64,000 nt of DNA from Chiloscyllium plagiosum (taxonomy: Eukaryota): assembly GCF_004010195.1 (NCBI RefSeq), contig NC_057749.1, forward strand, positions 20,506,095-20,570,094, written 5' to 3'. The notes beneath the pieces are model-generated. The model saw nothing but the letters and a program-made list of their open reading frames with translations, ran no database searches and was not told the DNA's origin. The translations under genes and the position numbers were made by a program. This document shows positions 829-63,492 of the stretch, in pieces (the first letter of the stretch is position 1; each line of letters starts with the position of its first letter).

Positions 829-1560
829 GGAGATAGCGAGGTCTGCAGATGCTGGAGATCAGAGTTGAGATTGTGTTGCTGGAAAGGCACAGCAGATCAA
901 GCAGCATCCGAAGAGCAGGAAAATCGACGTTTCAGGCCAGAGCCCTTCAGGAATGACACTGGGAACCTCAGGGGTGGAGCGATAAGTCGGAGGTGGGGGG
1001 GAGGGGTGGTGCTGGGGAGAAGGAGAAGGTAGCTGAGAGTGCAATAGGTGGATAGGGTTGGGGGTGAAGGTGCAGGTCCACAGTTTCTTTCACCAGTTTC
1101 TTAATTTCCCCTTCCCCCATCTTACCCCAGTTCCAACCTTCAAGCTCAGCACCACCTTCATGTCCTGATACACTTGTCAATCTTCCTTTCTACCTATCTG
1201 CTCCACCCTCCTCTCCAATCCATCACCATTAACCCCACCTCCATCCATCTGATCCATACACACTACCACCTGATGAAGGAGCGACACTCCGAAAGCTAGT
1301 GCTTCCAATTAAACCTGTTGGACCATAACCTGGTGTTGTGTGATTTTTAACTTTGTATTCCCCAGTCCAACACTAGCATCTCCAAATCCATCCACCTATT
1401 ACACTCTCAGCTACCTTCTTCCCAGCCTCACCCCTCTCCCATTTATCTCTCCACCCCCAAAGCTCCCAGCCTCATTCCTGATGAAGGGTTCCAGTCCAAA
1501 ATGTAAATTTTCCTTCTTCTCGAATGCTGCCTGACCTGCTGTGCTTTTCCAGCAACACAC
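829..1560. mobile_element. Penelope-like element remnant (family A) with inverted 3' ends; family B terminus nested at ~1265-1388
   Basis: 829-1080 is the reverse complement of the PLE 3' end, and 1081-1560 is the same 3' end forward (CCTGATGAAGGG...GCTGCCTGACCTGCTGTGCTTTTCCAGC). Confidence 0.75.
1267..1301 (+). ncRNA. Minimal hammerhead ribozyme motif (PLE family B)
   Basis: CAC-CTGATGA-A-GGAG-cgaca-CTCC-GAAA-GC-TA-GTG: catalytic core, 4-bp stem II, palindromic AGCT stem III, CAC/GTG stem I. Confidence 0.7.
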
Positions 1561-1677
1561 TCCCAATTCAGCTTTATTAAACTAGTCCACTTGGTAGTAG
1601 AGAGCATTGAGAATTGCTGATAAAGAAAGACCAGTTTATTAATTCAATTTAAATTCCACCAGCAGCCATGGTGTCAT

Positions 1678-1865
1678 TTGAAACAAAAAAACAGAAATTG
1701 CTGGAGAAACTCAGAAGGTCTGGTGCAGCTGTGGAGAGAAAGCAGAGTTGATGAATCAAAACTGAAGAAGAGTCACCAGACCCAAATGTTAAGTTTCTTT
1801 TGGTCTCCAAAGATGCTGCCAGAGTTTGTGTCTGAATTCCAGCATCCAGAGTTCTGTTTTATTTT
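1678..1865. mobile_element. Short fold-back PLE-terminus element (family D), decayed
   Basis: AAAACAGAAATTGCTGGAGAAACTCAG... left arm; CTGAAGAAGAGTCACCAGACCCAAATG degenerate hammerhead; right arm ...TTCCAGCATCCAGAGTTCTGTTTT. Confidence 0.55.
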
Positions 1866-2349
1866 GTTATTATGGTGGGATTAGTCTGCAGAGAGTCAAC
1901 CTTGACCTCTGAATGACTAGTTGAGTCTCTTTACAACCACATCACCCTCAGTGGGGTACAGCTTTCAGTATCCAGAATCAAACATTGCTCAAACTTGAAT
2001 TTGGTTTCAAAACTCATGGATGAGGAATTTAAAAATTATGTTCATCCACTCATTTTCAGCACTTGAAGTGATAGTGGTACAGCAGTTGGAAGAATTTTTT
2101 GTTCAACTCTTCTGTATGCAGAAGTTTCATCATGTGCAGGCATGATTTCTTGCAACATATTTGACTCATGGAAACTGTTATGTTGCTACATATTCCACCT
2201 GTCTATACGTACAATTAATACATTCCTGCAGGATAACATTAGAGAATAAAATATTATTATCTGGAGCTTCAAACCCTATTTAAATGTATCAAACGGATAA
2301 TTGCTGAGCTGAGAGGTTCCAACTCTGCTACTGATCTGATTAACAATAA

Positions 2350-2800
2350 AGTGTTAGTTCCAAAGTATGCTACATTCTGATGGACAAGTTGACCTTTCTG
2401 AATGAGCAGTAGGAAAGTCCTTCCAATTATTGTTGTCAATGCTGTTGCATTTCAAAGAAAGCATCAAATTGCATGAGCAATTTGTCCTTGCTGTGGTGGC
2501 CGTTTCAAGAGTTGAGAGGACTAGATTTGGCCAAGATGATGATTTCCGGCCATTTGGACACAGCATTCAAACTATCAAAACTGATTGTACAGTTTTGCCT
2601 GAATGCTTACAGAGCTAGCTTCAAGAAGAGCGCTAGCATCTGTTTATTGGTCCTCCCATTGATTCGGAAGGATGCAGTACAGTAAGTGCTGGTAAAATTT
2701 CTCTCGCATCCTTATGTGTCACTGGTACACAGTCCAGGCGTCACTACAGTACAGAAGCTTGGTGACAACAAATGTTCTGCCTCTTAACCAATGACATTAT
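2350..2800 (-). mobile_element. RTE-clade LINE, 3' ORF2 remnant
   Basis: Reverse strand translates with stops and frameshifts to KLLYCSDAWTVYQ*HIRMREKFYQH...QWED...SLKCNSIDNNNW, resembling the RTE C-terminal motif LLYGxExWT...HxRxLExFHQR. Confidence 0.65.
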
Positions 2801-3034
2801 AAAACACTGATGAATTAACCATCAAACCAATTCTGGCATGCTGTCCTTCACTGGATGCAAACTAATTGCTTTGTTTGTCAAAATTAAACAGATTAGATTC
2901 CAAAGTAATTCATTATGTCTGAGATTTGTGAAAATGTGCTGCATTGCAACATAATTACAACAAATATCAGCACTATCGAGTGTCTTTATTGTAGTAATAC
3001 ATCAAGATGCTTGATGTACACACAAGATACACAC

Positions 3035-3710
3035 CTTCAGGCGACTGTGTGAAATTTGCGTAGGTTTCTGCAAGGTGCTCCGATTTCCTCCCACAGTCTA
3101 ACGACATGCAGGTTAGGTGGATTGGCCATGCTGAATTACCCACCGTGTCCAAGGATATACCCGCACCAACCAACCCCACCACCCTGTGGCCGAACACTTC
3201 ACCTCCCCCTTCCACTCTGCCAAGGCCATCTCCATTGCCACTCCCTAACCACCCAACGCCTGGAGAAAGAAGACCTCATCTTCCGCATCAGGATCCTTCA
3301 ACCCCATGGCATCAATGTGGATTTCACCAGTTTCCTCATTTCCCCTCCACTCCCCACCTTATCCCAGTTCCAAACTTCCAATTTGTCACCACCCTATGAC
3401 CTGTCCTACCTGTCCATTTTCCTTTCCACTTATCCACTCCACCCTTCTCTCCGACCTATCACTATTATCCCCACCTCCATCTACCTATCACACTCTCAGC
3501 CAACTTACCCCAGCCCCACCCCCCTCATATTTATCTCACCACCCCTCCAGCTCACAGCTACCTGACCTGCTGTCCTTTTCCATCACCACAATCTCGACTT
3601 TAGCCATGGGAAATGCAGAGTTAAAGGGATGGGGGGACATAATTGGCTGGAATGTTCTTTGGAGAGTTGCGGTGGACTTGATGGGCTGAATGGCCTACTT
3701 CTACAGTTTT
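3035..3710 (+). mobile_element. HE1-type SINE interrupted by a Penelope 3' fragment (~3160-3600)
   Basis: V-domain at 3040-3150; GIY-YIG C-terminal text (QRLEKEDLIFRIRILQPHGINVDF) at ~3250-3330; SINE tail resumes at ~3601. Confidence 0.7.
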
Positions 3711-4169: not shown

Positions 4170-4822
4170 ACAAAGAACAAAGAACAAAGAAAATTGCAGC
4201 ACAGAAACAGGCCCTTTGGCCGTCCAAGCCCACGCTGATCTAAATTCTCTATCTAAACCTGTCGCCTATTTTCTAAGGATCTATATCCCTCTGCTCCCTT
4301 CCCATTCATGTATCTGTCTAGATCCATCTTAAATGATGCTATCATGCCTCTACCACCTCTCCTGGCAACGCGTTCCAGGCACCCACCACACTCTGTGTAG
4401 AGAACTTTCCACACATATCCCCCTTAACCGTTTCCCTTCACACCTTGATCATGTGACCCCTAGTATTTGAGTCCCCCACTCTGGGAAAAAGCTTCTTGCT
4501 ATCCATCCTGTCTATCCCTCTCATGATTTTATACACCTCAGTCAGGTCCCTCCTCAATCTCCGTCTTTCTAATGAAAATAATCCTAATCTATTCAACCTC
4601 TCGTCATCGCTAGCGCCCTCCATACCAGACAACATCATGGTAAACGTCGTCTGCACCCTCTCCAAAGTATCCACATCCTTTTGGTAATGTGGCAACCTGA
4701 ACTGTACGCAGTGTTCCAAATGTGGCTGAACCAAAGCCCTATTCAACTGTAACATGATCTGCCAACCCTTGTACTTGATACCCCATCTGATGAAGGAAAG
4801 CATGCCGTATGCCTACTTGACC
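4170..4822 (-). mobile_element. CR1 LINE 3' end
   Basis: ORF 4438-4803 ...LVQPHLEHCVQF...LERVQ...RLNRLGLFSLERRRLRRDLTEVYKIM...TRGH; (AAAGAAC)n tail at ~4171. Confidence 0.92.
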
Positions 4823-5298: not shown

Positions 5299-6212
5299 CG
5301 AAAATGTGTTGCTGGAAAAGCGCAGCAGGTCAGGCAGCATCCAAGGAACAGGAGAATCGACGTTTCGGGCATGAGCCCTTCTTCAGGAATGAGGAAAGTG
5401 TGTCCAGCAGGCGAAGATAAAAGGTAGGGAGGAGGGACTTGGGAGAGGGGCATTGGAAATGCGATAGGTGGAAGGAGGTCAAGGTGAGGGTGATAGGCCG
5501 GAGTGGGGGTGGTGGCGGAGAGGTCGGGAAGAAGATTGCAGGTTAGGAAGGCGGTGCTGAGTTCAAGGGATTTGACTGAGACAAGGTGGGGGGAGGGGAA
5601 ATGAGGAAACTGGTGAAATCCGAGTTCATCCCTTGTGGTTGGAGAGTTCCGAGGCGGAAGATGAGGCGTTCTTCCTCCAACCGTCGTGTTNNNNNNNNNN
5701 NNNNNNNNNNNNNNNNNNNNNNNNNNNNNNNNNNNNNNNNNNNNNNNNNNNNNNNNNNNNNNNNNNNNNNNNNNNNNNNNNNNNNNNNNNNNNNNNNNNN
5801 NNNNNNNNNNNNNNNNNNNNNNNNNNNNNNNNNNNNNNNNNNNNNNNNNNNNNNNNNNNNNNNNNNNNNNNNNNNNNNNNNNNNNNNNNNNNNNNNNNNN
5901 NNNNNNNNNNNNNNNNNNNNNNNNNNNNNNNNNNNNNNNNNNNNNNNNNNNNNNNNNNNNNNNNNNNNNNNNNNNNNNNNNNNNNNNNNNNNNNNNNNNN
6001 NNNNNNNNNNNNNNNNNNNNNNNNNNNNNNNNNNNNNNNNNNNAATCGTCGATCACGTCTGGGGGAAATTGCGGTCTTTGAAGAAGGAGGCCATCTGGGT
6101 TGTACGGTATTGGAACTGGTCCTCCTGGGAGCAGATGCGGCGGAGACGAAGGAATTGGGAATATGGGATGGCGTTTTTACAGGGGGCAGGGTGGGAGGAG
6201 GTGTAGTCTAGG
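5299..6212 (-). mobile_element. Young Penelope-like element (family A), RT C-terminus to 3' terminus, spanning an N gap
   Basis: ORF 6053-6268 contains LDYTSSHPAPCKNAIPYSQFLRLRRICSQEDQF (PLE RT thumb); 3' terminus carries a hammerhead core at 5355-5390. Confidence 0.85.
5355..5390 (-). ncRNA. Minimal hammerhead ribozyme motif (PLE family A)
   Basis: Reverse strand ATTC-CTGAAGA-A-GGGC-tcat-GCCC-GAAA-CG-TC-GATT. Confidence 0.6.
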
Positions 6213-6229: not shown

Positions 6230-6912
6230 GATGCCCGCCACCGCATCTCCACCACATCCCGCACTCACACATGCACCCCCTCACAGACCTAAGACACTCT
6301 CCACTCACATACACATACACATACACTCTCTCTCACACTCACAACCCCCCAACCCAGACAGAAAGACAGACAGACACACACACACACACATATACACATG
6401 CGCACATATACATATATTTTGTGGGGTGAATTTGTACTTGCAGAGTTACATTGTACTTTGCTCAAAACCTGCATGAATTCATGTAAAACTCTGTTATCTC
6501 ACTTTTTAGATTAGAATCAATCCAAACAACTTAGCATAGACAGAGAACACAGGGGGCCAACACCTTCAACATATTGTCTAGCTAACACCAATTGTTACAG
6601 TTAACCTGAGAATGCAACTTATTTAAAAAAGTTTGTGATTTACACATGAAAGAAGTGAAACTATCATGGTATTCGAACAGATGAAAGACTCAACAGATAA
6701 TCAAGGTATTTTTCAATGTATAATTTCAGTTACATCACACTGTAAATTTTTGCTATAAATTCTGTGCCTTACAATTTTGTCCTCGGCAACCACCTGATGA
6801 AGGAGCGACACTCTGAAAGCTAGTGCTTCCAATTAAACCTGTTGGACTATAACCTGGTGTTGTGTGATTTTTAACTTTGTACACCCCAGTCTAACACCGG
6901 CATCTCCAAATC
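6230..6912 (+). mobile_element. Penelope-like family B 3' region with hammerhead motif at 6791-6825
   Basis: Ends in CACCTGATGAAGGAGCGACACTCTGAAAGCTAGTG...CCAGTCTAACACCGGCATCTCCAAATC, the same terminus as 1265-1388. Confidence 0.7.
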
Positions 6913-9759: not shown

Positions 9760-9888
9760 AAAAGTGAGGACTGCAGATACTAGAGATCAGAGTCAAGATT
9801 AGATTGGTGCTGGAAAAGCACAGCAGGTCAGGCAGCATCCGAGGAGCGGGAAAATCGACGTTTCAGGCAAAAGCACGTCATCAGGAAT
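9760..9888 (-). mobile_element. PLE family A terminus (solo)
   Basis: AAAGTGAGGACTGCAGAT...ATCGACGTTTC...CATCAGGAAT; TATAACTCAA repeated on both sides (9744-9753, 9888-9897). Confidence 0.8.
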
Positions 9889-9974
9889 ATAACTCAACTT
9901 ACCCTCCTATCTTGTTCTGGACTACAACTGCAAGATCTCTCCCTCATGAGACCAACATTTCTTTCATAAATCAG

Positions 9975-11399: not shown

Positions 11400-12438
11400 A
11401 AACATAGAACAGTACAGCACAGTACAGGCCCTTCGGCCCTTAATGTTGTGCCTACCTTTTATCCTACTTTAAGATAAAACTACATGCCCTTCATTTTACT
11501 ATCTTCTATCCAAGAGTCACTTAAATGTCCCTAATGTACCTGACTCTACTGCCACTACTGGCAGTGCATTCCACACACCCACCACTCTCTGTGTAAAGAA
11601 CCTACCTCTGACATTTCGCCTAAACCTTCCTCCAATCACCTTAAATAATGCCCCCGGGGGATACCATGGAAAAAAGTCTCTGATTATTCACTCTATCTAT
11701 GCCTCTCATCATCCTGTATATCTCTATCAAGTTGCTTCTCACCCTTCTTCGCTCCAACGAGAAAAGCCTTACCTCCCTCAACCTTTCTTCATAAGACATG
11801 CCATCCAGACCAGTCCTGGTAAATCTCCTCTGCACCTTTTTAAAGCTTCCACATCATTTCTATAATGAGGCAACCAGAACTGAACACAATATTCCAAGTG
11901 TGGTCTAACCAGGGTTTTTTTAGAGCTGCAGCATAACCTCACAGCTCTTAAACTCAATCCCGCTGCTAATGAAAGCCAACAAACCAGACATCTTCTTAAC
12001 AACCCTATCAGCTTGAGTGACATCTTTGAGGGACCTATGGACATGTACCCCAAGATCCCTCTGTTTCTCCACACTGCCAAGAATCCTGCCTTTAACCCTG
12101 TCATCTGCAATCAAATTCAATCTTCCAAACTGAATCACTTCATACTTTTCCAGGTTGAACTCCATCTGCCACTTCTCAGCCCAGATCTGCACCCTGTCAA
12201 TGTCCCACTGCAACTTACAACACTATCCACCATTCCACTAACCTTCGTGTCATCGGCAAACTTCCTAACTCACCCTTTCACTTCCTCATCCAAGTCATTT
12301 ATAAAAATCACATAGAGCAGAGGTCCCAGATCAAATCTCTGCAGAACACCACTGGTCACTGAGCTCCAGGCTGAATAATTTCCACCTACTGCCACCCTCT
12401 GTCTTCTATGGGCCAGCCAATTCTGTATCCAGACAGAT
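11400..12438 (-). mobile_element. CR1 LINE 3' portion
   Basis: Frameshifted ORFs: WIQNWLAHRRQRV...SGVLQ...LYVIFINDLDE, WAEKWQMEFN, LVRPHLEYCVQFW. Confidence 0.92.
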
Positions 12439-14618: not shown

Positions 14619-15944
14619 GTCCATAACGAGCCTATTCAACCCATCATGTCTGCACTGGCTTGTTAAATGAGCTACCAATCTCCTGTTCTATCTCCATACC
14701 CTCGCATATTATTTTTTTACAGATAAACATCCAATGCCCTCCCTTTTTGATTTTCACAAAAACCTTCTCTGCTTTTGACTGCACTTCAATCTCACTGTCC
14801 TGATTTTTGGGCACCCGGTGTAGAGGGGGAAGGGCAGGCTGGGAGACCTCCTCGTGGGTCTGCTCCTGGGTCTAGCCAAAAAGGCCATAAACAAGTCCAC
14901 ACAGCGGGCGGTGGAGAGGGTCGTTACGGTTGATTGCCTGCCCCTCTTCCGCAGTTAGGTTAGAGCTCGGGTGTTTCTGGACAGGGAGCACGTGGTATCT
15001 ACCAACTCTCTCGAGCTGTTCAGGGAGAGGTGGGCACCACAGGAAGTGGAGTGTCTTATTTCCCCCTCCAACTCTATTTTGATTTAATCCCTGCCCTCCC
15101 CTTCACCTTTTGATTACACAACATTGCCCTTTGATGAGAAGGATTTTGCTTGTCACTGGCCACTTGGGTGTTTCCTGTCTTCCTGGTGGTGGGAAATGAA
15201 TAAAGATTTGTACACCTATTGTCTCTCACTGTGTCTCACACCTGCACACACACAACATGGGTGCTGGGGAAAATATAAGCACTAGTCCATAACGAGCCTA
15301 TTCAACCCATCATGTCTGCACTGGCTTGTTAAATGAGCTACCAATCTCCTGTTCTATCTCCATACCCTCGCATATTATTTTTTTACAGATAAACATCCAA
15401 TGCCCTCCCTTTTTGATTTTCACAAAAACCTTCTCTGCTTTTGACTGCACTTCAATCTCACTGTCCTGATTTTAGGGCAACCGGTGTAGAGGGGGAAGGG
15501 CAGGCTGGGAGACCTCCTCGTGCTCCTGGGTCTAGCCAAAAAGGCCATAAACAAGTCCAGACAGCGGGCGGTGGAGAGGGTCGTTACGGTTGATTGCCTG
15601 CCCCACTTCCGCAGTTAGGTTAGAGCCCGGGTGTTTCTGGACAGGGAGCACGTGGTATCTACCAACTCCCTCGAGCTGTTCAGGGAGAGGTGGGCACCAC
15701 AGGGAGTGGAGTGTCTTATTTCCCCCTCCAACTCTATTTTGATTTAATCCCTGCCCTCCCCTTCACTTTTTGATTACACAACATTGCCCTTTGATGAGAA
15801 GGATTTTGCTTGTCACTGGCCACTTGGGTGTTTCCTGTCTTCCTGGTGGTGGGAAATGAATAAAGATTTGTACACCTGTTGTCTCTCACTGTGTCTCACA
15901 CCTGCACACACACAACATGGGTGCTGGGGAAAATATAAGCACTA
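14619..15944. repeat. Direct tandem duplication of 666 bp (14619-15284) and 660 bp (15285-15944) containing a Tx1-like LINE 3' end
   Basis: Both units begin GTCCATAACGAGCC and end ATAAGCACTA; roughly ten substitutions and one 6-bp indel by eye. Each unit includes LLGLAKxAI...CLPLF...ERW-type text and AATAAA. Confidence 0.9.
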
Positions 15945-17179: not shown

Positions 17180-19790
17180 AGAGGATACAGGAGGTAGAGC
17201 TGAGTGTAGTGGCCATCACTGAGGACACATTGCTGGAGAAGCTGTAAGGTCTGAAGGTGGATGAATTAGCTGGACCAGATGACTACATGCCAGAGCTCTG
17301 AAAGAGAGAGCTGATGAGATTGTAGAGGCATTGGTGGTGATTTTTCAGATATCAACAGAGTCAGGGAGGTTCCCAGAAGATTGGAAATGGCTAATATAAC
17401 ACTCATGTTTAAGAAGGGAGGGAGGAAGGAGACAGGGAAATTATAGGCCGGTTAGCCTTGAGGTTCACAAGGGAGAGGTGTTAGCAATTCTGGAAAGTAT
17501 GAAAATAGATAAGCCCCTGGGCTGGATGGAATTTATCCTGGGATTCTCTGGGAAGCCAGGGAGGAGATTACAGAGCCTTTGGCTTTGATCTTTATGTCGT
17601 CATTGTCTCCAGGAATAGTGCCAGAAAACTGGAGGATAGCAAATGTCCCCTTGTTCAAGAAAGGGAATAGAGAAAACGCTGGCAATTATAGACCAGTAAG
17701 CCTTACTTTGGTTGTGGGTAAAGTGTTGGAAAAGGTTATAAGAGATAGCATTTATAATCATCTAGAGAGAAATAAGTTGATTAGGGATAGTCAACACGGT
17801 TTTGTGAAGAGTAGGTTGTGCCTCACAAACCTTATTGAGTTGTTTGAGATGGTGACCAATCAGGTGGATGAGGGTAATGTGGTTGATGTGGTGGGTATGC
17901 ATTTCAATAAGGCATTTAATAAGATTCCCCATGGTAGGCTATTGAATAAAATACAGAGGGATGGAATTGAGAGTGATTTAGCAGTTTGGATCAGACATTG
18001 ACTCGCTGAAAGAAGGCAGAGGGTGGTTCTTGATGGGAAATGTTCATCCTGGAGTTCAGTTACTAGCGGTGTACCGCAAGGATCTATTTTGGAACCACTG
18101 CTGTTTGTCATTTTTATAAATTACCTAGATGAGGGTGTAGAAGGATGGATTAATTTTGAGGATGACACTCAGGTCGGTGGAGTTGTGGTTAGTGCTGAAG
18201 GATGTTGTAGGTTACAGAGGGACAGAGATAAGCTGCAGAGCTGGGCTGAGAGGTGGCAAATGGGCTTTAATGTGGAAAAGTGTGAGGTGATTCACTTTCG
18301 AAGGAGTAAAGGATTGCAGAGTACTGGGCTAATGGTAAGATTCTTGGTAGTGTAGATGAGCAGAGAGATCTCTGTGTCCATGTACATAGATCCCTGAAAG
18401 TTGTCACCCAGATTGATAGTGTTGTTAAGAAGGCATGCGGTGTGTTAGCTTTTATTGGTGGAGGGATTGGTGGAGGGAGCCACGAGGTCATGCTGCAGCT
18501 GTACAAAACTCTGGTGCGGCCGCACTTGGAGTATTGTGTACAGTTCTGGTCACCGCATTATAGAAAGAATGTGGAAGCTTTGGAAAGGGTTCAGAGAAGA
18601 TTTACTAGGATGTTGCCCGGTATGGAGGGAAGGTCTTATGAGGAAAGTCTGAGGGACTTGAGGCTGTTTTTGTTAGACAGAAGAAGGTTGAGAGGTGTCT
18701 TGAGACATATAAGATACTCAGAGAGTTAGATAGAGTGAACAGTGAAAGTCTTTTTCCTCGGATGGTGATGGCTAGCACGAGGGGACATAGCTTTAAATTG
18801 AGGGGTGATAGATGTCAGATGTAGTTTCTTTACTCAGAGAGTAATAGGGGCATGGAACGCATTGCCTGCAACAATAGTGGACTCATCAATTTTAAGGACA
18901 TTTAAATGGTCATTGGATAAAGATATTGATGACAATGGAATAGTGCAGATAGATAGGTTTCAGATTGTTTCCACAGGTTGGCGCAACATCGAGGGCCGAA
19001 GGTCCTATACAGTGCTATAATGTTCTATGTTCCATTAGTCTGACCTTGGTCATTGGTAATACTTTAGAGATCATCACAAAGGATAAGATTACAGAGTAGT
19101 TGGAAGTGGATGGTAAAATAGGGTTAAGTCAGCATGACTTCATCCAAGAGAAGGTCATGCCTAACAAATCTGTTATGAATTCTTTGAGGAGGGAAGGAGG
19201 AGGTTAGATAAAAGAGAGCCAGTGGATGTGATCGATTTGGATTTCCAAAAGGTCTTTGACATGGTGCCACACAGGAGACTGCTCAGTAAGATAAGAGACC
19301 ATGGTGTTAGGGGCAAGGTACTGGTATGGATAGAGGATTGGCTGACTGACAGAAGGCAGATTTTAAAATGGTATTTTTTCAGGATGGTCGCCGGTGACTA
19401 GTGGAGTTCCACAGGAGTCAGTATTGTGCAGACAACTATTCACATGATACATAAATGATCTGGACAAAGGAACCGAGGGCATTGTTGCTAAGTTTTCAGT
19501 TGACATGAAGATAGGTTGAGGGACAAGTAGTGTTGAGGAAGCAAGGAGGCTGCAGAAGGTCTTGGACAGGCTGGAAGAGTGGGCAAAGAAGTAGCAGATG
19601 TGGGAATATGTGCAGGTCTGTATTTTGGTTGGAAGAATAGAGGCATAGATTATTTCCTAAATGTGGAACTTATTGCTGCAGAATGCTGTGGAGGCCAAGT
19701 CATTGAGTTTATTTAAAACAGAGATAGATAGGTTTGTAATTGGTCAGGGGATCAAGGTTTAAAGGGAGGAGGCTCCTATGTCTTCTGGTC
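17180..19790 (+). mobile_element. Nested CR1 LINEs: inner copy ~17460-19032 inserted in an older CR1 (17180-17460, 19033-19790)
   Basis: ORFs 17579-18001, 18023-18355 and 18442-18729 are CR1 RT. The outer element breaks at TATAGGCCGGTTAGCCT and resumes at TTAGTCTGACCTTGG. Confidence 0.9.
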
Positions 19791-20004: not shown

Positions 20005-20105
20005 GACTCTGGATTAGAGTGGTGCTGGAAAAGCACAGCAGTTCAGGCAGCATCCGAGGAGCAGGAAGATCGACGTTTCGGCCAAAAGCCCTTCGTCAGG
20101 AATGA
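20005..20105 (-). mobile_element. PLE family A terminus
   Basis: GTGCTGGAAAAGCACAGCAG...ATCGACGTTTCGGCCAAAAGCCCTTCGTCAGGAATG. Confidence 0.8.
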
Positions 20106-20604: not shown

Positions 20605-20792
20605 GATGTGGAGGAGCTGGTGTTGGACTGGGGTGGACAAAGTTAAAAATCACATAATGCCAGATTATAGCGCAACAGGTTTATTTGGAAGTACAAGCTT
20701 TCAGAGCACTGTTCCACAGCTACCTGCTGAAGGAGCAGCGATCCGCATGCTAGTGCTTTAGGGCTATAATCTGGTGTTGTATGACTTTTAAC
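20605..20792. mobile_element. Fold-back palindrome of PLE family B terminus (decayed)
   Basis: AGTTAAAAATCAC...CCAGATTATAG left arm versus CTATAATCTGGTGTTGTATGACTTTTAACT right arm; degenerate CCTGCTGAAGGAGC core. Confidence 0.7.
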
Positions 20793-20905
20793 TCAAAGAA
20801 GGTCAACAGTGCATCTTCCACCAATGCTCACAGTGCTCGGGGGAGATAGCCAAATCAGTCTCCAATAGCCACCATACCTCCAGGAAAATTCCAACACAGA
20901 GAAAA

Positions 20906-21513: not shown

Positions 21514-21648
21514 GAGGAGAAAGTGAGGACTGCAGATGCTGGAGATCAGAGCTGAAAATGTGTTGCTGGAAAAGCGCAGCAGGTCAGGCAGCATCCAAGG
21601 AACAGGAGAATCGACGTTTCGGGCATAAGCCCTTCTTCAGGAATGAGG
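21514..21648 (-). mobile_element. Young PLE family A terminus with intact hammerhead core (21609-21644)
   Basis: Near-identical to 5299-5392, 54555-54680 and 62950-63136. Confidence 0.85.
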
Positions 21649-21782
21649 ATTATTCTGAAATGGCTTGGATTATTTCATGCAATAATCCACAGGTCTGACT
21701 GTTACAGCAATGAATACAGCAACAATACCAAACAAACAGCAATGCAGACACAGATTTGTGATATTGATTGATGGATTAATAT

Positions 21783-22265
21783 TTGTTGCCATGGTCTGGC
21801 GATGGAGGAGTCCAAGGACCTGCATGTCCTTGGTGGAGTGGGAGGGGGAGTTAAAGTGTTGGGCTACGGGATGGTTGGGTTGGTTGGTCTGGGTGTCCCA
21901 GAGGTGTTCTCTGAAACGTTCCGCAAGTAGGCGGCCTGTCTCCCCAATATAGAGGAGGCCACATCTGGTGCAGCGGATGCAATAGATGATGTGTGTGGAG
22001 GTGCAGGTGAATTTGTGGCGGATATGGAAGTGTCCCTTGAGGCCTTGGAGGGAGGAGGTGTGGCGCAAGTTTTGCATTTCTTGCGGTTGCAGGGGAAGGT
22101 GCCGGGAATGGAGATTGGGTTGGTGGGGGGAGTGTGGATCTGACGAGGGAGTCACGGAGGGAGTGGTCTTTTCGGAACGCTGATAGGGGTGGGGAGGGAA
22201 ATATATCCTTGGTGGTGGGGTCCGTTTGGAGGTGGCAGAAATGACGGCTGATGATATGTTGTACC
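21783..22265 (-). mobile_element. Penelope-like GIY-YIG endonuclease fragment
   Basis: FTCTSTHIIYCIRCTRCGLLYIGETGRLLAERFREH...PVAQHFN: GIY-YIG with the CxxC insert typical of PLEs. Confidence 0.9.
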
Positions 22266-23075: not shown

Positions 23076-23430
23076 GAGAAAGTGAGGACCGCAGATGCTG
23101 GAGATCAAAGTTGAGAGTGTGATGCTGGAAAAGCACAGACGGTCGGGCAGCATCCGAGGAGCAGGAGATTGAATGTTTCGGGCAAAAGCCCTTCATCAGG
23201 AAATTGCCTGAAACGTCGATTCTCCTGCTCCTCGGATGCTGCCTGACCTGCTGTGCTTTTCCAGCACCATTCTAATCTTGACGCTGGAAAAGCACAGCCA
23301 GTCAGGCAGCATCCGAGGAGCAGGAGAGTGGACGTTTCGAATGTCATTCCTGATGAAGAGCTGATGCTCAAAACGTCCGCTCTCCTGCTCCTCGGATGCT
23401 GCCTGATCTGCTGTGCTTTTCCAGCACCAG
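23076..23430. mobile_element. Two tandem fold-back palindromes of the PLE family A terminus
   Basis: Arms GCTGGAAAAGCACAG...CGTTTC and GAAACGTC...CTGTGCTTTTCCAGC occur twice (23076-23282, 23283-23430). Confidence 0.85.
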
Positions 23431-24800: not shown

Positions 24801-25028
24801 TCTGGCAGGTGTGGAGATAGGAGCCAAAACAGTCACTCGAGTTGATGGTGTGGGTGTGAATTTATCAGGCAGGCTGCCTTGACCAATGACCCAGAGAAAC
24901 TGGAAGTTGTCGATTTTGGAAATAAAAAGCAGACATAGAAGCTGGAAAAGAGGTGCTCCAGGCTCTGGGTGCCAGCTCTCTCAGTTTCTCTGGGTTTAAA
25001 TAACCCCCCCACACTGCCTGCTTCCTAC

Positions 25029-42601: not shown

Positions 42602-42818
42602 GCAAAGTTAAAAATCACACACCAGGTGTATTTGGAATCACCAGCTTTCAGAGTGCTGCTCCTTCATCAGGTGGTTGATGAGTATACGCCACAGCCACCT
42701 GAAGGAGCGGTGCTCCAAAAGCCAGTGCTTCCAAATAAACCTGTTGGACCATAACCTGGGGTTGTGCGATTTTTAACTTTGTCCACCCCAGTCCAACACC
42801 GACATCTCCAAATCATGA
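42602..42818. mobile_element. Fold-back palindrome of the PLE family B terminus (in the putative SEC11A 3' UTR)
   Basis: AAAGTTAAAAATCAC...AGCTTTCAGAGTGCTGCTCCTTCATCAGGTGG versus CCACCTGAAGGAGCGGTGCTCC...GATTTTTAACTTT. Confidence 0.8.
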
Positions 42819-51879: not shown

Positions 51880-53960
51880 CAGAAAGCTTGAGAAACAGCA
51901 ACTATGGACAGAGAAAGAGTTAAACTTTGAGTCCATAATGACTCTTCTTCAGAACTGAAAGGTGTTGGAATTTTTTTTTTATACATTTGACAGAGGCAAA
52001 GGTGGAGCAAGGGGACAGATGGTGTCAAGGCCCACTGCAAAAGATAAAGGTTTTGTTAATTATGGTGAAAGAGAAATAGTTGTATATTAAGATGGGAAGG
52101 GACAGAATAGGTTCTCTTCACTAACAGCAAAGTAAAGATGATACTATCCCCTCCATTGCCTTGTTTGTAAGTAAAATGGAGAATAGACATCTGCAATCAG
52201 TTGCTGAAGTTATAGAATTGAACAGTTACCTCAAGGCTGGAAAGTGCAAGTGGTGACTGAGATGTTATTCCTGGAGCTTGAATTGTGCTTTGTTGGAACA
52301 CTGCAGCAAGCCCAGGACAGAAATGTTAGCATGCGAGTAAGGTGGTTTACTGAAATGGGAAGCAATTGGGAGGTCTGGGTCATTTCCTACAGATGTAGCA
52401 GAGATAGACTCTAAAATGTCAGATAGTCTGCCTTTGGTCTTGAAAGAAACAAAACATGGCTTCACTTGGAAGATGTGTACGTGGCCTTGGACAGTGAGGA
52501 GGAAAGTTGTACACCTTCTGAAACTGCATGGTCATGTATCATGGGGGAGTGAGGAAGTACTGGAGGAGTGGATCATGGGGAACTGCCCCTGTAGTATGCT
52601 GACAGTCCAGGAGACAGGATGATGTTTGGTAGGGACATGCTCCCGGAGGTGGTGGAAATGATGGAGGATGATCTTTTTAATGCAGGGACTAGTAGATGGA
52701 GTGGAAGGAGAATGGAAATCCTATTGTTGTTCTGGGAATGGCAGGGGAAGAGTAGGGGCCCTGTCAACTACAATGGGTGGGGAATACTTAGCTGAGGAGA
52801 AAGGCAATGTTACAGACAACCTGGTGAAAAGTGGCATTAGAACAGAGGAACCTAGAGGTACAGGTACATAATTCTTCAAAGTTTGCATCAAATATAGACA
52901 GGGTGGTTAAAATGCTATTTGGCACACTTGCCTTCATTACTCAGGAAGAGTATAGGAGTTGGGAAGTCATGTTGAGGTTGTACAGGACATTGGTGAGGCA
53001 TCTTCTGGGATACTGTGTCCAATTCTGGGTAGCCCTGTTATAGGAAGGATATTAAGCTGGAGAGGGTTCAGAAGAGATTGACCAGGCTGTTGCTTTTATA
53101 GGAAGTTTGAGTTATAAAGAAAGGCTGGGACTTTTTTTTCCACTGGAGCATAGGGGTTCGAGAGATGACCTGATAGAAGTTTATAAACAAATGAGAGGTA
53201 TAGATAGAGTTAACGATAGTTGTCTTTTACCTAGGATGGGGGATTTCAAGAAGGGGGGCATATTTTTAAGTTGAGAGGAGAGAGATTAAAATAAAAACAC
53301 ACGAGGTGCATTTTTTTTTAAACAGAGTGTGGTTTGTGTGTGGAATGAAATTTGAGGAAGTGGAGGATGTGGGTTCAATTACAACATTTAAAAGACATTT
53401 GGATAAGTACACAAATAGGAAAAGGTTTGGAGGGATATGGGGCAGGAGCAGGCAGACGAGACTAGTTTAGTTTGGGATTATGTTCTGCATGGATTGGTTG
53501 GACTGAAGGGTCTAGTTCCGTGCTGTATGACTCTGTGTGACAGTGACCAAGAAACTGGGAGAATGAAATTCCTGAAGAAGGGCTTATACCCGAAACGTCG
53601 ATCTTCCTTCTCCTTTGATGCTGCCTGACCTGCTGCGCTTTTCCAGCAACATATTTTTAAGCTCTGATCCCCAGCATCTGCAGTCCTCACTTTCTCCTAG
53701 AATGAAATGGAAGCCTTGCAGGAAGCAGGATGTGAGGTGGTGTAGCTGAGGTACCTGTGAGGGGTGTGGACTTGGGTGGATATTAGTTGGCAGCCTACTC
53801 TCAGAAATGGAAACAATGAAGTCAAGAAAGGGAAGAGTCAGAGGTGGACCAGGTGAAGAGGAGAGAAGAATGGAAATTGGAAGCAAAACTGATGAAATCT
53901 TTCTAATTCTGGACATGAACAGGAAGCAGCATTAAAGACAATGTATTAGAGAAAGTAGGA
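51880..53960 (-). mobile_element. Old Penelope-like element, interrupted by a CR1 (52840-53540, +) and a young family A terminus (53568-53699, +)
   Basis: LPFLDFIVSISESRLPTNIH (PLE RT) at ~53780-53850; GIY-YIG tail (PIASHF...ISVLGL) at 52265-52465; CR1 motifs and tail in between. Confidence 0.7.
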
Positions 53961-54333: not shown

Positions 54334-54510
54334 CTGAAATGAGAGAGATAATGTCAGATTATCAGTTGGTGCTTTTCAGCTGAGAAAGGCAAGGGACATT
54401 TCACAGAATACAGAGATGAAATCAAAGTTTCAAAGACTGCTTTCAACCCACATTACAAGGGAACACCCATCACATCAGTATTAGCTTGGCTTTGGTGCAT
54501 TGTCAGATTA

Positions 54511-54679
54511 ATCGACGTTTCGGGCATAAGCCCTTCTTCAGGAATGGCTTATGCCTGAAGAAGGGCTTATGCCCGAAACGTCGATTCTCCTGTTCCCTGG
54601 ATGCTGCCTGACCTGCTGCGCTTTTCCAGCAACACATTTCCAGCTCTGATCTCCAGCATCTGCAGACCTCACTTTCTCC
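54511..54679. mobile_element. 169-bp PLE family A insertion with two back-to-back hammerhead cores and a 15-bp TSD
   Basis: TSD TGCATTGTCAGATTA at 54496-54510 and 54680-54694; cores on minus (54545-54510) and plus (54555-54586). Confidence 0.9.
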
Positions 54680-55204
54680 TGCATTGTCAGATTAGTATGT
54701 TAATTCCTCGAATGGATCATCACTAACTCTCACACTTAATAAATGTCAGTGGATTACAATGAGCAAAACCACTGGCCCAGAATCCATTTGCCAGTCTGTT
54801 GTCAAATAATACTGTAGAATCATAATGAGTTAATTAGGATTGGTGGTTTATTCAAAGATGACGGTTTCTACAATGCTGACCACTTAGCATAAATTATACA
54901 TTAGTCACTCAAACGGCTTGCACATTGAGTCAAACATATTTAATAACTGAAAATGCTGGAGAAACAGCAGGTTAGAAAACAGTTGGCTGCCTATTATACT
55001 GAATACTACCTGCATTTTGCGTTACTATTTATTCTATGCTTATTTGGGTTCATTATACCCCTCTATAAGCGGAGATCAGATACACGCACCTGGCTTATTA
55101 GCACCACCAACTGACCCAGAGACTTCAGTCCCTATGCTTTAGGACATTATTAAACATTATTCTGCTGTTTTCATCCTGACAAGGATCTACACACTCAACA
55201 ACTT

Positions 55205-55793
55205 CCCTTGCCACTACAAGAGGTGCAAAACCTGCACCCACATCAGAGGACCCAAAGGATCCTTTCACATTCGGCAAAGATGTTCTGCACATCATCCAAA
55301 CACCTCATCTACTGTGTCCGTTGCTCTCAATGTTGTCTCCTCTACACTGGGGAGACAGGGAACATCTCTGGGATACACACACCAAACAACCCTCCTGCCC
55401 TGTGGCGGACTAGTTCAACTCCCCCTCCCACTCCACCAAGGACACGCAAGTCCTAGGCTGCCTCCACCAGCAAATTCTAGCCACCCAATACCTGGAGGAA
55501 GAACATCTCATCTTCTGCCTTAGGACCACATGGCATCAATGTCGATTTCACCAGTTTCCTCATTTCCACCACACCTCCCCTCACCTCACCTCAACCCAGA
55601 TCCAATCCTCCAACTCTGCACTGCTGCTTTGAACTGTCCCACCTGCCCACCTTCCTTCCCATGTACCCACTCCACCCTCTGCTCCCAAAACGTCGACTCT
55701 CCTGCTCCTCTGATAATGCCTGACCTGCTGTGCTTTTCCAGTGCCACCCTTTTCGACTCTGATCTCCAGCATCTGCAGTCCTCACACTCTCCT
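55205..55793 (+). mobile_element. PLE family A GIY-YIG plus 3' terminus remnant
   Basis: FCTSSKHLIYCVRCSQCCLLYTGETG, followed by the family A terminus. Confidence 0.85.
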
Positions 55794-56159
55794 ACATTAC
55801 AGAGGGTAAACCTACATATTTTAAGTTAAACAGTACTTAACTGCAACCTGAAATTATTCACAAAACTGGAAGAACTCCAAGAACACTCTCTATAACTACT
55901 AACCTGGGGAGAAAAGGACACAGGTTTCAAAATTGTAGTTCCACACTGAATAACGGTGCAATATAGTGATTTTTCCAGGAAAGAGATAATTTACTATTAA
56001 TTTCCTGGCAAATTATCAAGGGAAATGATATATATCTACTGTGTTAAGACATCACTGTAGGGAATAAATGTGACAGTTCATTACTTCCAGGTTTATACAG
56101 CCATTGTCAATTTACAATTTAATTTGTAGATTCTGTTTTGTAGATACATTAAGTAGTCT

Positions 56160-56362
56160 GATTTGAAGGTGCCGGTGTTGGACTGGGTTGGACAAAGTTA
56201 AAAATCACAACACCAGGTTATACTCCAGCAAGTTTATTTGGAAGCACTAGCTTTCGGAGTGCTGCTCCTCCACAACCACCTGATGAAGGAGCAGCGCTCT
56301 GAAAGGTAGTGTTTCCAAATAAACCTGCTGGACTATAACCTGGTGTTGTGCGATTTTTAACT
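56160..56362. mobile_element. Fold-back palindrome of the PLE family B terminus
   Basis: Arms AGTTAAAAATC...GGAAGCACTAGCTTTCGGAGTGCTGCTCCT / CACCTGATGAAGGAGCAGCGCTCTGAAAG...GATTTTTAACT. Confidence 0.85.
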
Positions 56363-56447
56363 AAGTCGGCTGAGACATTCAGTATTGACAATCATTGTAC
56401 TGCAACAGTTACTGCTGCATACGTACTGCATTTAAAATAAAGTAGCA

Positions 56448-56672
56448 GAAAATGAGGACTGCAGATGCTGGAGATCAGTCACAAAGCGTGGTGCTGGAAA
56501 AGTACAGCCGGTCAGGCAGCATCTGAGGAGCAGGACAGTCGACGTTTCGAGCATAAGCTCTTCATCAGGAATGTCTTCATTCCTGATGAAGAGCTTATGC
56601 TTGAAACGTCAACTCTCCTGCTCCTCGGATGCTGCCTGACCGGCTGTGCTTTTCCAGGGACGCTGTTTGACT
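56448..56672. mobile_element. Fold-back palindrome of the PLE family A terminus with two hammerhead cores (56538-56573 minus, 56578-56613 plus)
   Basis: Stem II variant GAGC-ttat-GCTC; imperfect TSD TTTAAAATAAAGTAG. Confidence 0.85.
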
Positions 56673-59223: not shown

Positions 59224-60567
59224 TAACTGATGCGGTGAGTTAAGTCCAACCATGATGCCAGGACAGGGATTTCACGCAATCTCATATTTGAACAGACAGT
59301 CAGAGAGAAGATGTGATTTTTGTGCAGCAAATGGGAACAAAAATCTTGGGACTAGATTTTTACATTCAATAGCAATTGCAGTCCAGTTTTGCATAAATAA
59401 TAAGATGGCTGGTAGCCTTACTAGTGTACATCAAAAACTGGCCTTGATATATAAAAGTCTAATTTAAGCTAGTAGGTGGGCTATCAGAAGGAAAATACTG
59501 ATAAAGCAGCTGGATTGTCGTAAAAATTAATCTGGTTCACTAATAACCTTCAGGAAAGGGAACCTGGCACTCTTAAGCAGCCTGGTTTGCACCTGACTTC
59601 TATCAACATAACGTGGTTGGATCAGAGCCCTGAACTGTGCACTAAATGAACTGCAACTCGAAGCAACTACAGACATAAACACTCTAACTTGGGACAGGCA
59701 AAACATGTGACCATTTCACCCTTACCAAAAAAAATTAAATTTTAAAATCAGCTGTCACTTGTACAAATACACATTTTGTTAAGCACTTGAATGATTCCTG
59801 GCTTCTTTTCAAAACCTGCACTCATACAGCTGCTAACAGAAAATTTCCCTTGATAATTCAGCCAGGCGGCACTCAAAATATTTTCACACTCAAACAAGGA
59901 ATTCAATACACAGATTTATTGTAGCAGCAGATATCATTCTCTCTACTTTAAACTACCCATGTACAACAATGCAATAGAACAATACAATTTGTGCAGGGAG
60001 ACATTTGTCTAGGGCCAGAAACAGTGGTCAGCAGGCAGGGGGAAATGAGAAGATCTTGCTGTGTTTCTGTGCACAGAAAGAATGCAATAACCAACACTGC
60101 TATAGATCAAAACCTATTTGTCCACTTAGTGATGGAGTCTGCACTGGTTGAAAACAATGGGCCAGAGAGCTGCGTTGCAGATCTCTAACTCTTATGAGTA
60201 TGACCTTTGTATTTAATATGCAGCATAGTGGTGAGGGTGACCAGTAATCCAGAAGTCCAGGGTAATGCTTTGGGGACTTGATTCAAAACCCCCACACCAG
60301 TTAGTAGAATGTGAATTTAGCTAATAAATCTGGAATTGAAAACTGAGCTCAATAATGGCAAATGAGAATTACTGTATTGTTGTAAAAACATCTGATTCAC
60401 AGATGCTCTCGAGAGAAGGAAATCTGACATCTCTACGTAATCTAGTCTACATGCAATTCCAGAGCAACATCATCATTGACTCATAACTGCCTTGTGAAAT
60501 GGCCAAGCAAGTCACCCAATTTGAGGGATACTGGAGCTAGGCAACAAACACAACTTGCCAGAAGTGA

Positions 60568-60771
60568 AGCGTGGTGCTGGAAAAGCACAGCCAGTCAGGC
60601 AGCATCTGAGGAGCAGGAAAATCGATGTTTCGAGCACAAGCAGTTTCTTGATGAAGGGCTTATGCCCAAAATGTTGATTCTCCTGCTCTTTGGACGCTTT
60701 TAACCGGCTGTGCTTTCCCAGCACCACTCTCTTCGACTCTGAACTCCAGTATCTGCAGTCCTCACTTTCTC
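60568..60771. mobile_element. Fold-back palindrome of the PLE family A terminus
   Basis: Inverted arms; TSD CTTGCCAGAAGTG (60555-60567) / CTTGCCAGAGGTG (60772-60784). Confidence 0.85.
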
Positions 60772-61239
60772 CTTGCCAGAGGTGCCTTCAACCAATGCAA
60801 AGAAAACTCTTAAAAACTCAGTTGATTTATGGTCAGATGAGAGCATCAGAACAATAACAGAACAAGTTCTCTCAGCATTGCATTTTGACAACTGAGAACC
60901 AAATGAGGAAGCCATCCACCCAAGTCAAGTCCACACTAGCGAAACTATGCTCAGAACTTGTAACAATTGACCTGCTGACATCACCTCCCTTGGTAGGAAT
61001 ACAAAGCTTATTCCAACTCTCAACCTACACTGAAGGACCAGATCAATCAAAACTCCAAAATATAAATCAAACATCCACCTATCCATTGTTAAGGCCACTC
61101 GAGGGTGCGATTTGTTAGGAGCAATTGCAATACAATATGTAGGACACCGAAAGTGTTGCATAAAGAGAGAGTTGGACCAAGGAACCAGAGTTTGGAGATT
61201 GGCAGCAAAGGCACTAAACACATGGTATTGAATCAGGAG

Positions 61240-61550
61240 CTGGTGGGAGTGTCCCAGAAGGTAAAGTCACTATATAAATGCAGAGGTAACCCCAGAAGCC
61301 TATGGATGTGTGGAGGACAGTAAAGTTGCTATACAAATGCAGATGTCGTCCAGTGAGTGTATGCGGGTCCGCAAAGCTGCTATACAAATGCAGAGGCCGC
61401 CCCGAGAGCCTGTGGGAGTGTGCAGGTCCGTAAAGTCGCTATACAAATGCAGATGTCTGCCCAGAAGCCAGTGGGAGCGTGGAGTACGCAGAAGTCTCTA
61501 TGTAAATGCAGTGGTCGCCCTGCCCTGGGAGCTGATGGGAGTGTGGGTCC
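61240..61550. repeat. About 58-bp diverged tandem repeat (5 units) in SEC11A intron 1
   Basis: Core AAAGTCGCTATACAAATGCAG in units starting at 61261, 61320, 61371, 61430 and 61488. Confidence 0.85.
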
Positions 61551-61625
61551 AGGTCGAGCAAGGGCCTGGTTTAAGCGGAGCCGCGGGCGCGGGCGCGGGC
61601 GCGGGCGGGCCCCGGGGAGACGCAC

Positions 61626-61676
61626 CTGCCGCTTGTTCATCCGCCGGACATCATTGAGGAAATCCAGCGACATCAT
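61626..61676 (-). CDS. SEC11A: SEC11A exon 1
   Basis: MMSLDFLNDVRRMNKRQ|gtgcg (human MLSLDFLDDVRRMNKRQ). The six exons total 540 nt = 179 aa plus stop. Confidence 0.96.
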
Positions 61677-61900
61677 CCTGAGCACCGGCTCCGCTCTCGA
61701 TCATGGGCGAGCGGCAGGGTGAGGGAGAAAAAAAACCAAGCCACGGAGCCTCCAACCGCCGACACTCGAGCTACCGGAAGCTCAGGCTCCCCTGGAAGTC
61801 TAGGCCTCACCAGGAAGGCGTCGCGCCGCCCTCTGGGAGATTTAAAGGGACACTCCCCTCCAGCAGCCAGCTCCCTGTCCAATGAGGGACTGCCAGGTTT
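61677..61900 (-). promoter_or_regulatory. SEC11A CpG-island promoter/5' UTR
   Basis: CpG-rich from about 61560 to 61860; CCAAT at 61879-61883; TTAAAGGG at 61842-61849. Confidence 0.6.
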
Positions 61901-61954
61901 TCTGGTCCAGAGCTGCCAAGTAGCCTTAGGTCACTCATTCATTAAAATGGGCTT

Positions 61955-63492
61955 AGAGTCAGAGAGATGTACAGCATAGAAACAGACCCTTCGGTAAACC
62001 TTGTCCATGCCGACATGATATCCTAAATTTAATCTAGTCCCACCTGCCAGCACTTGGCCCATATCCCTCCAAACCCTTCCTATTCATATACCCATCCAGA
62101 TGCCTTTTAAATGCTGTAATTGTACCAGCCTCCACCACTTCCTCTGGCAGCTCATTTCATACACGTACCACCCTTTGCGTTAAAATGTTGCCCTTAGGTC
62201 CCTTTTAAATCTTTCCCCCGGGGTGGCACAGTGGTTAGCACTGCTGCCTCACAGCGCCAGAGACCTGGGTTCAATTGCCGCCTCAGGCGACTGACTGTGT
62301 GGAGTTTGCACATTCTCCCCGTGTCTGCGTGGGTTTCCTCTGGGTGCTCCGGTTTCCTCCCACAGTCCAAAGATGTGCGGGTCAGGTGCATTGGCCATGC
62401 TAAATTGCCCGTAGTGTTAGGTGAAGGGGTAAGTGTAGAGGTATGGGTGGGTTATGCTTCGGCGGGTTGGTGTAGACTTGTTGGGCTGAAGGGCCTGTTT
62501 CCACACTGTAGGTAATCTAATCTAATCTAAACCCTAAACCTATGTCCTCCACTCTGGGGAAAAGGTCACCCCTCAGCCTCCGACGCTCCAGGGAAAACAG
62601 CCACAGCCTATTCAGCCTCTCTCTGCAGCTGAAACCCTCCATCCCTGGCAACATTCTTGTAAATAGCTTCTGAACCTTTTCAAGTTTCACAATATCCTTC
62701 CTATCGGAGGGAGACCACAATATTGCACACAGTATTTCAAAAGTGGCCCAACCAATGTCCTGTACAGCTGCAACATGACCTGCCAACTCCTACATGCAAT
62801 TCTCTGACCAATAAAGGAAAGCATACCAAACGCCTTCTTCACTATCCTATCTACGTGTAACTCCACTTTCAAGGCACTATGAACCTGCACTCCAAGGTCT
62901 CTTTGTTCAGCAACACTCTCCAGGACCCTACCATGAAGTGTATAAGTTCTGAAAATGTGTTGCTGGAAAAGCGCAGCAGGTCAGGCAGCATCCAGGGAAC
63001 AGGAGAATCGACGTTTCGGGCATAAGCCCGAAACGTCGATTCTCCTGTTCCCTGGATGCTGCCTGACCTGCTGCGCTTTTCCAGCAACACATTTTCAGCT
63101 CTGATCTCCAGCATCTGCAGACCTCACTTTCTCCTCAGTGTATAAGTTCTGCCCTGCTTCGCCTTTCCAAAATGCAGCACCTCACATTTATCTAAATTAA
63201 ACTCCATTTGCCACTCTTTCGCCCTTTGGCCCATCTGATCAAGATCCTATTGTTACTCTGAGATAACCTTCTCCACTGTCCACTACATCTCCAATTATGG
63301 TGTCATCTGCAAACTTACTAATTATACCTCCTATGCTCACGTCCAAATCATTTATATAAATGATAAAAAGCAGCGGACCCAGCACTGATCCTTGTGGCAC
63401 ACCACTAGTCCCAGGCCTCCAGTCTGAAAAGCAACCCTCTACCACACTCTGTCTTCTACCTTTGAGCCAGTTCTGTATCCAAATGGCTAGTA
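61955..63492 (-). mobile_element. CR1 LINE 3' portion, interrupted by an HE1 SINE (62218-62530, +) and a PLE palindrome (62952-63136)
   Basis: ORFs 63239-63502 (SGVPQGSVLGPLLF...FADDT), 62687-62890 and 62517-62786. Confidence 0.92.
62952..63136. mobile_element. 185-bp perfect fold-back PLE insertion with an exact 15-bp TSD
   Basis: 73-bp perfect arms (62949-63021 / 63026-63098) with loop ATAA; TSD AGTGTATAAGTTCTG at 62937-62951 and 63137-63151. Confidence 0.92.

Follow-up and report, generated by a model that had tools for sequence, protein, structure and literature searches.

Insertions of endonuclease-bearing (EN+) Penelope-like elements (PLEs) are described with head-to-head arms, a tail of 30–40 bp on one arm, a target duplication and an overlap or palindrome at the junction (PMC3846280, PMC8557442). 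The same sources call the mechanism of the inverted ends undefined, or propose antisense self-priming or endonuclease resolution for it. Here we examine a stretch of 64,000 nucleotides from the shark Chiloscyllium plagiosum (NC_057749.1, positions 20,506,095 to 20,570,094; hereafter the window), which holds many short, hammerhead-bearing insertions of two PLE families, A and B. They share the EN+ layout, but are mostly two termini only and very many, and we counted how their ends pair, where their 5′ ends form a wall and which extra base, a G, precedes it. The counts point to a reaction in which both nicks of a target site prime reverse transcription on element RNA.

In vitro, the lizard PLE Poseidon of Anolis (PAc) nicks and extends both strands, has two internal start sites that define the tail downstream of the hammerhead, is predicted to form a dimer and uses uncut RNA (PMC11167929). 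PAc belongs to another clade by its linker motif, and the part of its description that covers these properties draws no connection from them to inverted insertions or cap run-off.

Minimal hammerheads in the pseudo-long terminal repeats (pLTRs) of metazoan PLEs have the same core, extra base before stem II and palindromic stem III, and likewise occur as thousands of dispersed singles and as opposite-strand pairs 100–700 bp apart (PMC4209133). That account proposes cleavage and circular templates, whereas the copies counted here start ahead of the core and few ends fall at the cleavage site. Non-LTR retrozymes (bioRxiv 10.64898/2026.07.22.740005) are also non-coding, hammerhead-bearing derivatives of PLE terminal repeats. 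They are described as direct tandem units, while the window elements are single or head to head.

In L1 twin priming, a second nick primes internally on the RNA and gives an inverted part, and the twin-primed arms are not known to overlap. The shark families would differ from L1 in having two fixed priming sites about 35–40 nt apart; their two copies mostly span one common stretch, which makes a palindrome. The extra G has its parallel at the capped starts of L1 (PMC9341517).

The inverted truncated copies, the tail, the palindromes, the duplications and the minimal hammerheads are thus already described. Our literature search, with older subscription papers and supplements outside its scope, met no paper that states, for PLEs, a cap G or a pairing of priming sites. 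Judged from the sequences, these two would be a better-supported alternative to a fold-back of the copy on itself.

Hammerhead cores and paired ends

The window holds 20 matches to the hammerhead-core pattern, against 3.88 ± 2.14 in shuffled sequences, and none of 100 shuffles reaches 20. Families A and B account for 15 of them, and their motifs, as an earlier note on this stretch had written them, were recovered by pattern search. The features are those of a minimal type I hammerhead, namely the CUGAnGA and GAAA boxes, stem II, an extra base, a palindromic stem III and a short stem I. We number from the C of CTGAnGA as 0, and cleavage is predicted between +27 and +28.

Stems I and II covary across families A, B and C. 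Within the window, the covariation claimed for stem II at 56538–56613 holds for the left arm (GAGC/GCTC), while the right arm has GAGC/GCTT with a G-U pair. The isolated cores gave folding z-scores near 0 and only stem II is predicted stable in A and B, so the folding energy is uninformative on the motif. An Rfam search of the window at E ≤ 5 returned no hammerhead family, only sub-threshold microRNA-hairpin matches.

The earlier note had counted at least four families. Family C is real, with 1,031 exact matches to its degenerate core pattern, and shares a box with family A; a separate family D was not identified, and only C-like remnants were found.

The hairpins were then analyzed in a random sample made up of 28 50-kb blocks on 28 large contigs, their mid-chromosome positions picked by hand (1.357 Mb without N). 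It holds 219 A-type and 60 B loci, including 64 A and 23 B head-to-head pairs. Among the A singles are some termini of family C, matched through the shared box, and arms shorter than 30 nt are missed, so the hairpin counts are lower bounds. Among 75 A cores in the sample, stem II shows double changes to GAGC/GCTC (n = 2) and GGAC/GTCC (n = 2).

The outer ends fall into two classes, with medians at +89 and +128 in A (by alignment) and at +86 and +121 in B. The fixed ends themselves are placed at about +88 and +126 in A. One long end with the tail is paired with one short end in 60 of 64 A and all 23 B hairpins, that is, in 83 of 87. The same holds for 32 of 33 further young hairpins from search loci, a set partly biased by the queries. 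Single A copies use both classes (82 long and 73 short; 17 and 11 among those with a target duplication). The sample hairpins thus combine an optional tail at one end, an inverted 5′-truncated copy and a variable target duplication of 9–19 bp, the combination by which EN+ PLE insertions are recognized.

The inner ends are unequal as well. Of the 60 mixed A hairpins, 24 have the tail-less arm extending further 5′ by more than 12 nt and 7 the tail arm (p = 0.003), and in the other 29 the two lie within 12 nt. The B counts are 10, 4 and 9, which is not significant. Among the hairpins with a target duplication and a difference of more than 20 nt, the short arm is further 5′ in 13 versus 4 (A) and 5 versus 2 (B), although two of those 13 are doubtful, one for an over-extended alignment and one for an N. 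Where the short arm is further 5′, each arm holds sequence that its partner lacks, the short arm at its 5′ side and the tail arm at its 3′ side, and therefore neither arm can have been copied from the other. Locus L195, at first a very asymmetric hairpin, was dropped as a separate mini-insertion within an older copy.

The arms of one hairpin have a common stem II loop in 28 of 30 cases, versus 21% by chance, and the partner is the closest arm in 12 of 53. Copies that lack an inversion but have target duplications share their stopping place with the hairpin arms.

Three further peculiarities were seen. Short templated fillers recur at hairpin centres (L001–L006, L015–L017, a set enriched by the query used, and window 54540–54560); they are copied from stem II and end on CC microhomology, which suggests an RT (reverse transcriptase) slipping back after reaching the template end. 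In L162, about 360 bp of unrelated flank is mirrored around an A hairpin as a 461-bp palindrome of 98.9% identity (1996–2456 vs 2535–2994 after orienting), by read-through copying, later duplication or an assembly artefact. The inverted B arms of two independent loci, L178 and L181, start nearly alike about 240 nt before the core, possibly at a second stop or start site.

Walking upstream in the genome from the family A terminus reached a parent with 555 open codons, where RVT_1 (E 1.4e-8) is followed by a C-terminal GIY-YIG domain. The GIY-YIG match is weak (E 4.9e-4, below the Pfam cut-off), and the N-terminal part of the frame was not recovered in one copy. The family B terminus continues into a GIY-YIG frame with linker cysteines (L172, L180, L183), 30% identical to the A endonuclease (E 9e-18); an RT contiguous with it was not recovered. 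In both translations the RT–endonuclease linker holds a three-cysteine motif that fits the CX2-5CxxC of the Neptune and Nematis clades (PMC8557442). The sequence past the tail is shared and then runs into further units (L296–L320), as expected for pLTRs. On this sequence evidence, families A and B are products of EN+ PLEs.

The insertions had been taken for PLE termini with minimal hammerheads, not for miniature inverted-repeat transposable elements (MITEs), and each hairpin for a product of its own insertion. Both claims are upheld by the coding RT/GIY-YIG parents, the differing centres and the duplications of 9–19 bp.

The 5′ wall and the G before it

The 5′ ends of family A pile up at A(−4), 4 nt before the core, and those of family B probably at A(−8). 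Among the A arm ends confirmed by a target duplication, 70 of 112 lie in −12..+12. The young core has 36,985 exact matches genome-wide, and in the first 100 listed (hand count) 58 end at −1..−4, 12 at −5..−9 and 30 read through. This wall is not an alignment drop-off, as it held with several references, used because the subfamilies diverge just upstream of −4, with duplication-confirmed ends and on direct inspection.

The cleavage site was rejected as the main 5′ end. Only 3 of the 112 confirmed ends fall in +24..+32, and there are 426 filtered matches at +24..+29 versus 5,033 at −4 alone, where the filter passes about half and the −4 pattern is about half as inclusive.

These 5,033 genome-wide exact matches are those with a base before A(−4) that differs from the C of the element. 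In the first 100 listed (hand count), this base is G in 68, A in 18 and T in 14, while G is expected in 25.6% (p = 8e-19). The element body lies upstream in none of 30 such loci. Moreover, the G is specific to the −4 end (12/15, versus 2/31 at −3/−2 ends; p = 9e-7) and precedes −4 in 9 of 16 single copies (p = 0.009). In family B, 7 letters other than C were counted by hand before A(−8); 5 are G, and 2 belong to read-throughs with a point change.

An untemplated G at the stop argues for an RNA end and not for a stall. From this analysis we infer that the G copies the RNA cap and that the wall is the start of polymerase II. The start bases lie in C-A steps, which we take to resemble the initiator consensus. 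An untemplated 5′ G has been read as copied cap in L1 (PMC9341517), and Penelope of Drosophila virilis has an internal promoter that starts transcription 46 bp upstream of an intron, the end of which adjoins the hammerhead (PMC2377424, PMC4209133).

Proposed two-site priming and its rivals

We put at about 0.7 the probability that both nicks prime on element RNA, that both complementary DNAs (cDNAs) run to the capped start and that they are joined head to head. The end positions, their pairing, their asymmetry and the G are read directly from the copies; we infer the nicks, the dimer, the cap and the joining.

In this scheme, a staggered cut would let each nick prime reverse transcription at one of two internal sites on uncut RNA, and these two sites would be the two outer ends. 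A protein dimer would use one site per nick, probably on one RNA. Each cDNA would then run toward the RNA 5′ end, which in the first repeat of the transcript is only 90–130 nt away, with the polymerase II start setting the wall and the G copying the cap. The tail-primed copy would be cut short more often because the second primer lies ahead of it. The centre would be closed by end-joining, through microhomology (often the symmetry of stem II) or a short templated filler.

Stubs of 90–130 nt would result if priming took place in the first repeat, and longer copies, truncated at random, if it took place in a downstream one. The hammerhead would be present in the copies because the RNA begins with it, in its first 32 nt, and would not set the breakpoint. 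A stem II loop shared by the arms fits a single RNA, but also fold-back or conversion.

A bolder version, to which we give slightly less than even odds, makes the two-site, two-nick priming obligatory. A dimeric RT-endonuclease would use a single uncut, capped RNA for both target strands, priming one of them at the tail site and the other about 38 nt upstream of it, so that the tail, the inverted pLTR and some 200,000 hairpins would come from one reaction. The stubs would record the transcription start, and the hammerhead would be a decapping switch in the first 32 nt of the message.

Several observations weigh against two-site priming to a capped start. Asymmetric centres can also come from later deletion, and shared stem II loops fit fold-back or gene conversion equally well. 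The G lies inside the target duplication in 7 of the 9 G singles, which makes a target-site preference possible, though a cDNA ending in C that annealed to the target would give the same. The partner arm could be the source of the G in 5–6 of 10 G hairpins, and there are four cases that it does not explain (L269 on a tail arm; L281, L286 and L290 on short arms). Family C is weaker (G 10/20, p = 0.016), and a broad count in the random sample gave G 9, A 7, T 12 and C 55, with T and C templated in some subfamilies.

Ends at +28 are about twice as frequent as their neighbours (23–31 vs 11–14 of 100), so some cleaved RNA may be used, with microhomology as a confounder. In one single-cell RNA run, 1,190 multi-copy reads, which derive from many genomic copies, showed no start or end peak, and a second run had no reads on the terminus. 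A full-length donor with both repeats was not recovered by walking upstream in the genome. For PAc, the two strands showed no difference in start site, and the pairing of sites is not examined in the part of the account that gives it (PMC11167929).

The closest competitor is the fold-back proposed in the earlier note, in which one cDNA would stall at the hammerhead and fold back to serve as its own template; any asymmetry would then come from later deletion. It is favoured by the sample hairpins with both 5′ ends inside −20..+32, which number 39 of 64 in A and 13 of 23 in B; the 29 of 60 mixed A hairpins with nearly equal arm starts, the shared loops and the centres that use stem II symmetry (62949–63135) also suit it. 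But neither end lies in that range in 8 A and 7 B hairpins, and 829–1565 is centred about 100–230 nt upstream of the core. Fold-back does not explain why second arms stop at the site that singles use, why singles end at the same wall or why 83 of 87 hairpins have mixed ends. Nor does it fit the short arms that reach further 5′ more often (24 vs 7), the untemplated G on them, the centres far upstream or the duplication-flanked hairpins with unique sequence in each arm. Later deletion could make single asymmetric cases but gives no reason for the bias, and we regard fold-back as unlikely. About as unlikely is a version that keeps dual priming but takes the wall for a stall, caused by an RNA structure or bound protein at stem I, with the G from target preference or junction microhomology. 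In A and C the wall does fall on the 5′ arm of stem I, a target duplication contains the G or a partner arm adjoins it in many cases, and the signal is weaker in C; yet the G is enriched only at the exact −4 end, the apparent B wall at −8 stands 5 nt before stem I and also has the G, and the 4-bp stem II is the only stem predicted stable in A and B.

For PLE inverted junctions, a published proposal is self-priming on an antisense transcript (Arkhipova et al. 2013, PMC3846280), and reads in both orientations were found on the terminus, possibly from passively transcribed copies. Such self-priming is improbable as the maker of the head-to-head structure, as it explains neither the one long and one short end in nearly all hairpins, nor the G that either arm can carry, nor the singles of both end types. 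An ordinary MITE or a palindromic non-autonomous family spreading as a unit could be suspected from the very high copy number and the many uniform hairpins of about 190–230 bp. The arms are unequal, however, the centres vary copy by copy, the duplications measure 9–19 bp and the long copies continue into an RT/GIY-YIG frame, by which this last alternative is largely refuted.

The hairpins had also been suggested to act as two-strand ribozyme pairs, for which we find no support. A transcript through a hairpin holds one sense core in a predicted duplex of −122 to −163 kcal/mol, and the core is kept on both strands in only 12 of 87 hairpins. A cleaving hammerhead dimer needs two sense copies (PMC4209133), so cores on opposite strands cannot form one. 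By this modelling, the hairpins would bury the ribozyme.

Direct tandem units with a complete hammerhead each, the retrozyme layout, do not occur in the window but do elsewhere in the genome. In a very young A subfamily with a CTGT loop and a perfect 4-bp stem I (L301, L302, L311, L315, L316, L320), 224-nt units, each with an intact hammerhead, are directly repeated. They form where the 5′ region jumps back into the repeat, and are retrozyme-like. These tandems could in principle form cleaving dimers.

Insertions along the window and their meaning

Self-comparison and family searches gave 13 head-to-head structures, in place of the roughly ten noted before, four short singles, five body-bearing copies and several C-like remnants. 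Target duplications, also noted before, were confirmed at 11–17 bp with at most one mismatch around 8 of 20 window insertions tested; a similar caller gave 5/1500 on mismatched flanks. The insertions are PLE 3′ termini as had been claimed, but not exclusively, as the five body-bearing copies carry 400–900 nt of body, four of them with RT or GIY-YIG remnants. The claimed hairpin density of one per 6 kb is close to that of A and B in the window (about 1 per 7 kb), but the random sample has 1 per 15.6 kb (a lower bound).

At the left end, a family A head-to-head insertion (829–1565) has its tail arm on the minus strand (829–1061) and its short arm on the plus strand (to 1565), with a 14-bp duplication with one mismatch. 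It is interrupted by a nested B single mini-copy on the plus strand (1261–1388), which runs from −9 to +120 with an intact core and an 11-bp duplication with one mismatch. An old C-like inverted pair with a degenerate core follows at 1677–1870. A second inverted pair, of family C, lies at 25669–25965 with the degenerate core on its minus arm (25730–25774).

The body-bearing copies include two older A-type ones on the plus strand with GIY-YIG remnants, at 3159–3599 (hammerhead region deleted) and 55199–55798 (5′ part of the hammerhead deleted). A young A copy with RT and GIY-YIG remnants, an internal N run and an inner-site end lies on the minus strand (5302–6211). A tail-ended B copy on the plus strand (6253–6912) has at least 517 nt of upstream body; these two long copies stand head to head about 40 nt apart, in spite of their different families. 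The last, a young A terminus with GIY-YIG body (21515–22263, minus), has a 9-bp duplication, and within this single duplication about 135 nt of unrelated sequence (21650–21783) replaces the element part between terminus and body.

Three A single mini-copies were found. One on the minus strand (9761–9889) starts at −4/−5 and is tail-ended, with a 14-bp duplication with one mismatch, another (20015–20105, minus) has an inner-site end and no convincing duplication, and the third (53568–53698, plus) runs from −4 to the tail with a 10-bp duplication.

Several A hairpins are highly uneven or composite. At 30213–30363 a minus-strand tail arm faces an inverted stub of about 30 nt within a 17-bp duplication, and the young insertion at 54510–54680 joins a 36-nt inverted arm ending at −5 through a templated filler to a tail arm from −1, with a 17-bp duplication with one mismatch. 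The compound palindrome at 23076–23430 has four arms as two head-to-head pairs, joined tail to tail by one event or by nested insertion.

The other A hairpins have a more regular build. The short and tail arms at 32957–33171 come with a G immediately ahead of the tail arm's −4 start, a G that the partner arm could also explain. The hairpin at 56444–56672 has a GAGC stem II in both arms and an 11-bp duplication, an older one (60566–60773) a 13-bp duplication with one mismatch, and a young one (62949–63135) arms of 98.7% identity, joined via the self-complementary stem II, and a perfect 15-bp duplication. The B hairpins are an old one with arms joined through stem II (20605–20793), one with small deletions (42603–42817) and one with the tail arm on the minus and the short arm on the plus strand (56160–56362).

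A Pfam scan of 39 of the 43 long open frames in the window, which short exons would escape, returned RT and GIY-YIG pieces only, plus one sub-threshold hit, and identified no host intron. Unrelated features include LINE-type (long interspersed nuclear element) RT fragments (RVT_1) at 17513–18352, with inverted partner copies near 11955–12434 and 4616–4760. Long-range inverted pairs of other LINE or short interspersed nuclear element 3′ pieces occur throughout. There are also a recent direct duplication (14619–15160 and 15285–15820; period about 660 bp, 98–99% identity) and a 40-bp minisatellite of about 9 units (24463–24841).

The inverted ends and the one-sided tail of PLEs are stated to be unresolved (PMC8557442), and the present counts turn into specific predictions for the PAc system (PMC11167929). 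Each initiation site should serve one nick, the copies should run off at the cap, and ribozyme cleavage should play no part in setting the ends. If true, the stubs would map the transcription starts of many PLE families from DNA alone.

The 87 hairpins in 1.36 Mb extrapolate, from 28 hand-picked blocks, to roughly 2 × 10^5 A and B hairpins in the 3.56-Gb genome. Repeat annotation would mistake them for MITEs or microRNA hairpins. Heavy A-to-I editing is reported for Penelope in a lizard, and likewise for self-folding palindromic repeats in a frog (PMC5625713). In the shark, the hairpins would be a large potential source of double-stranded RNA.

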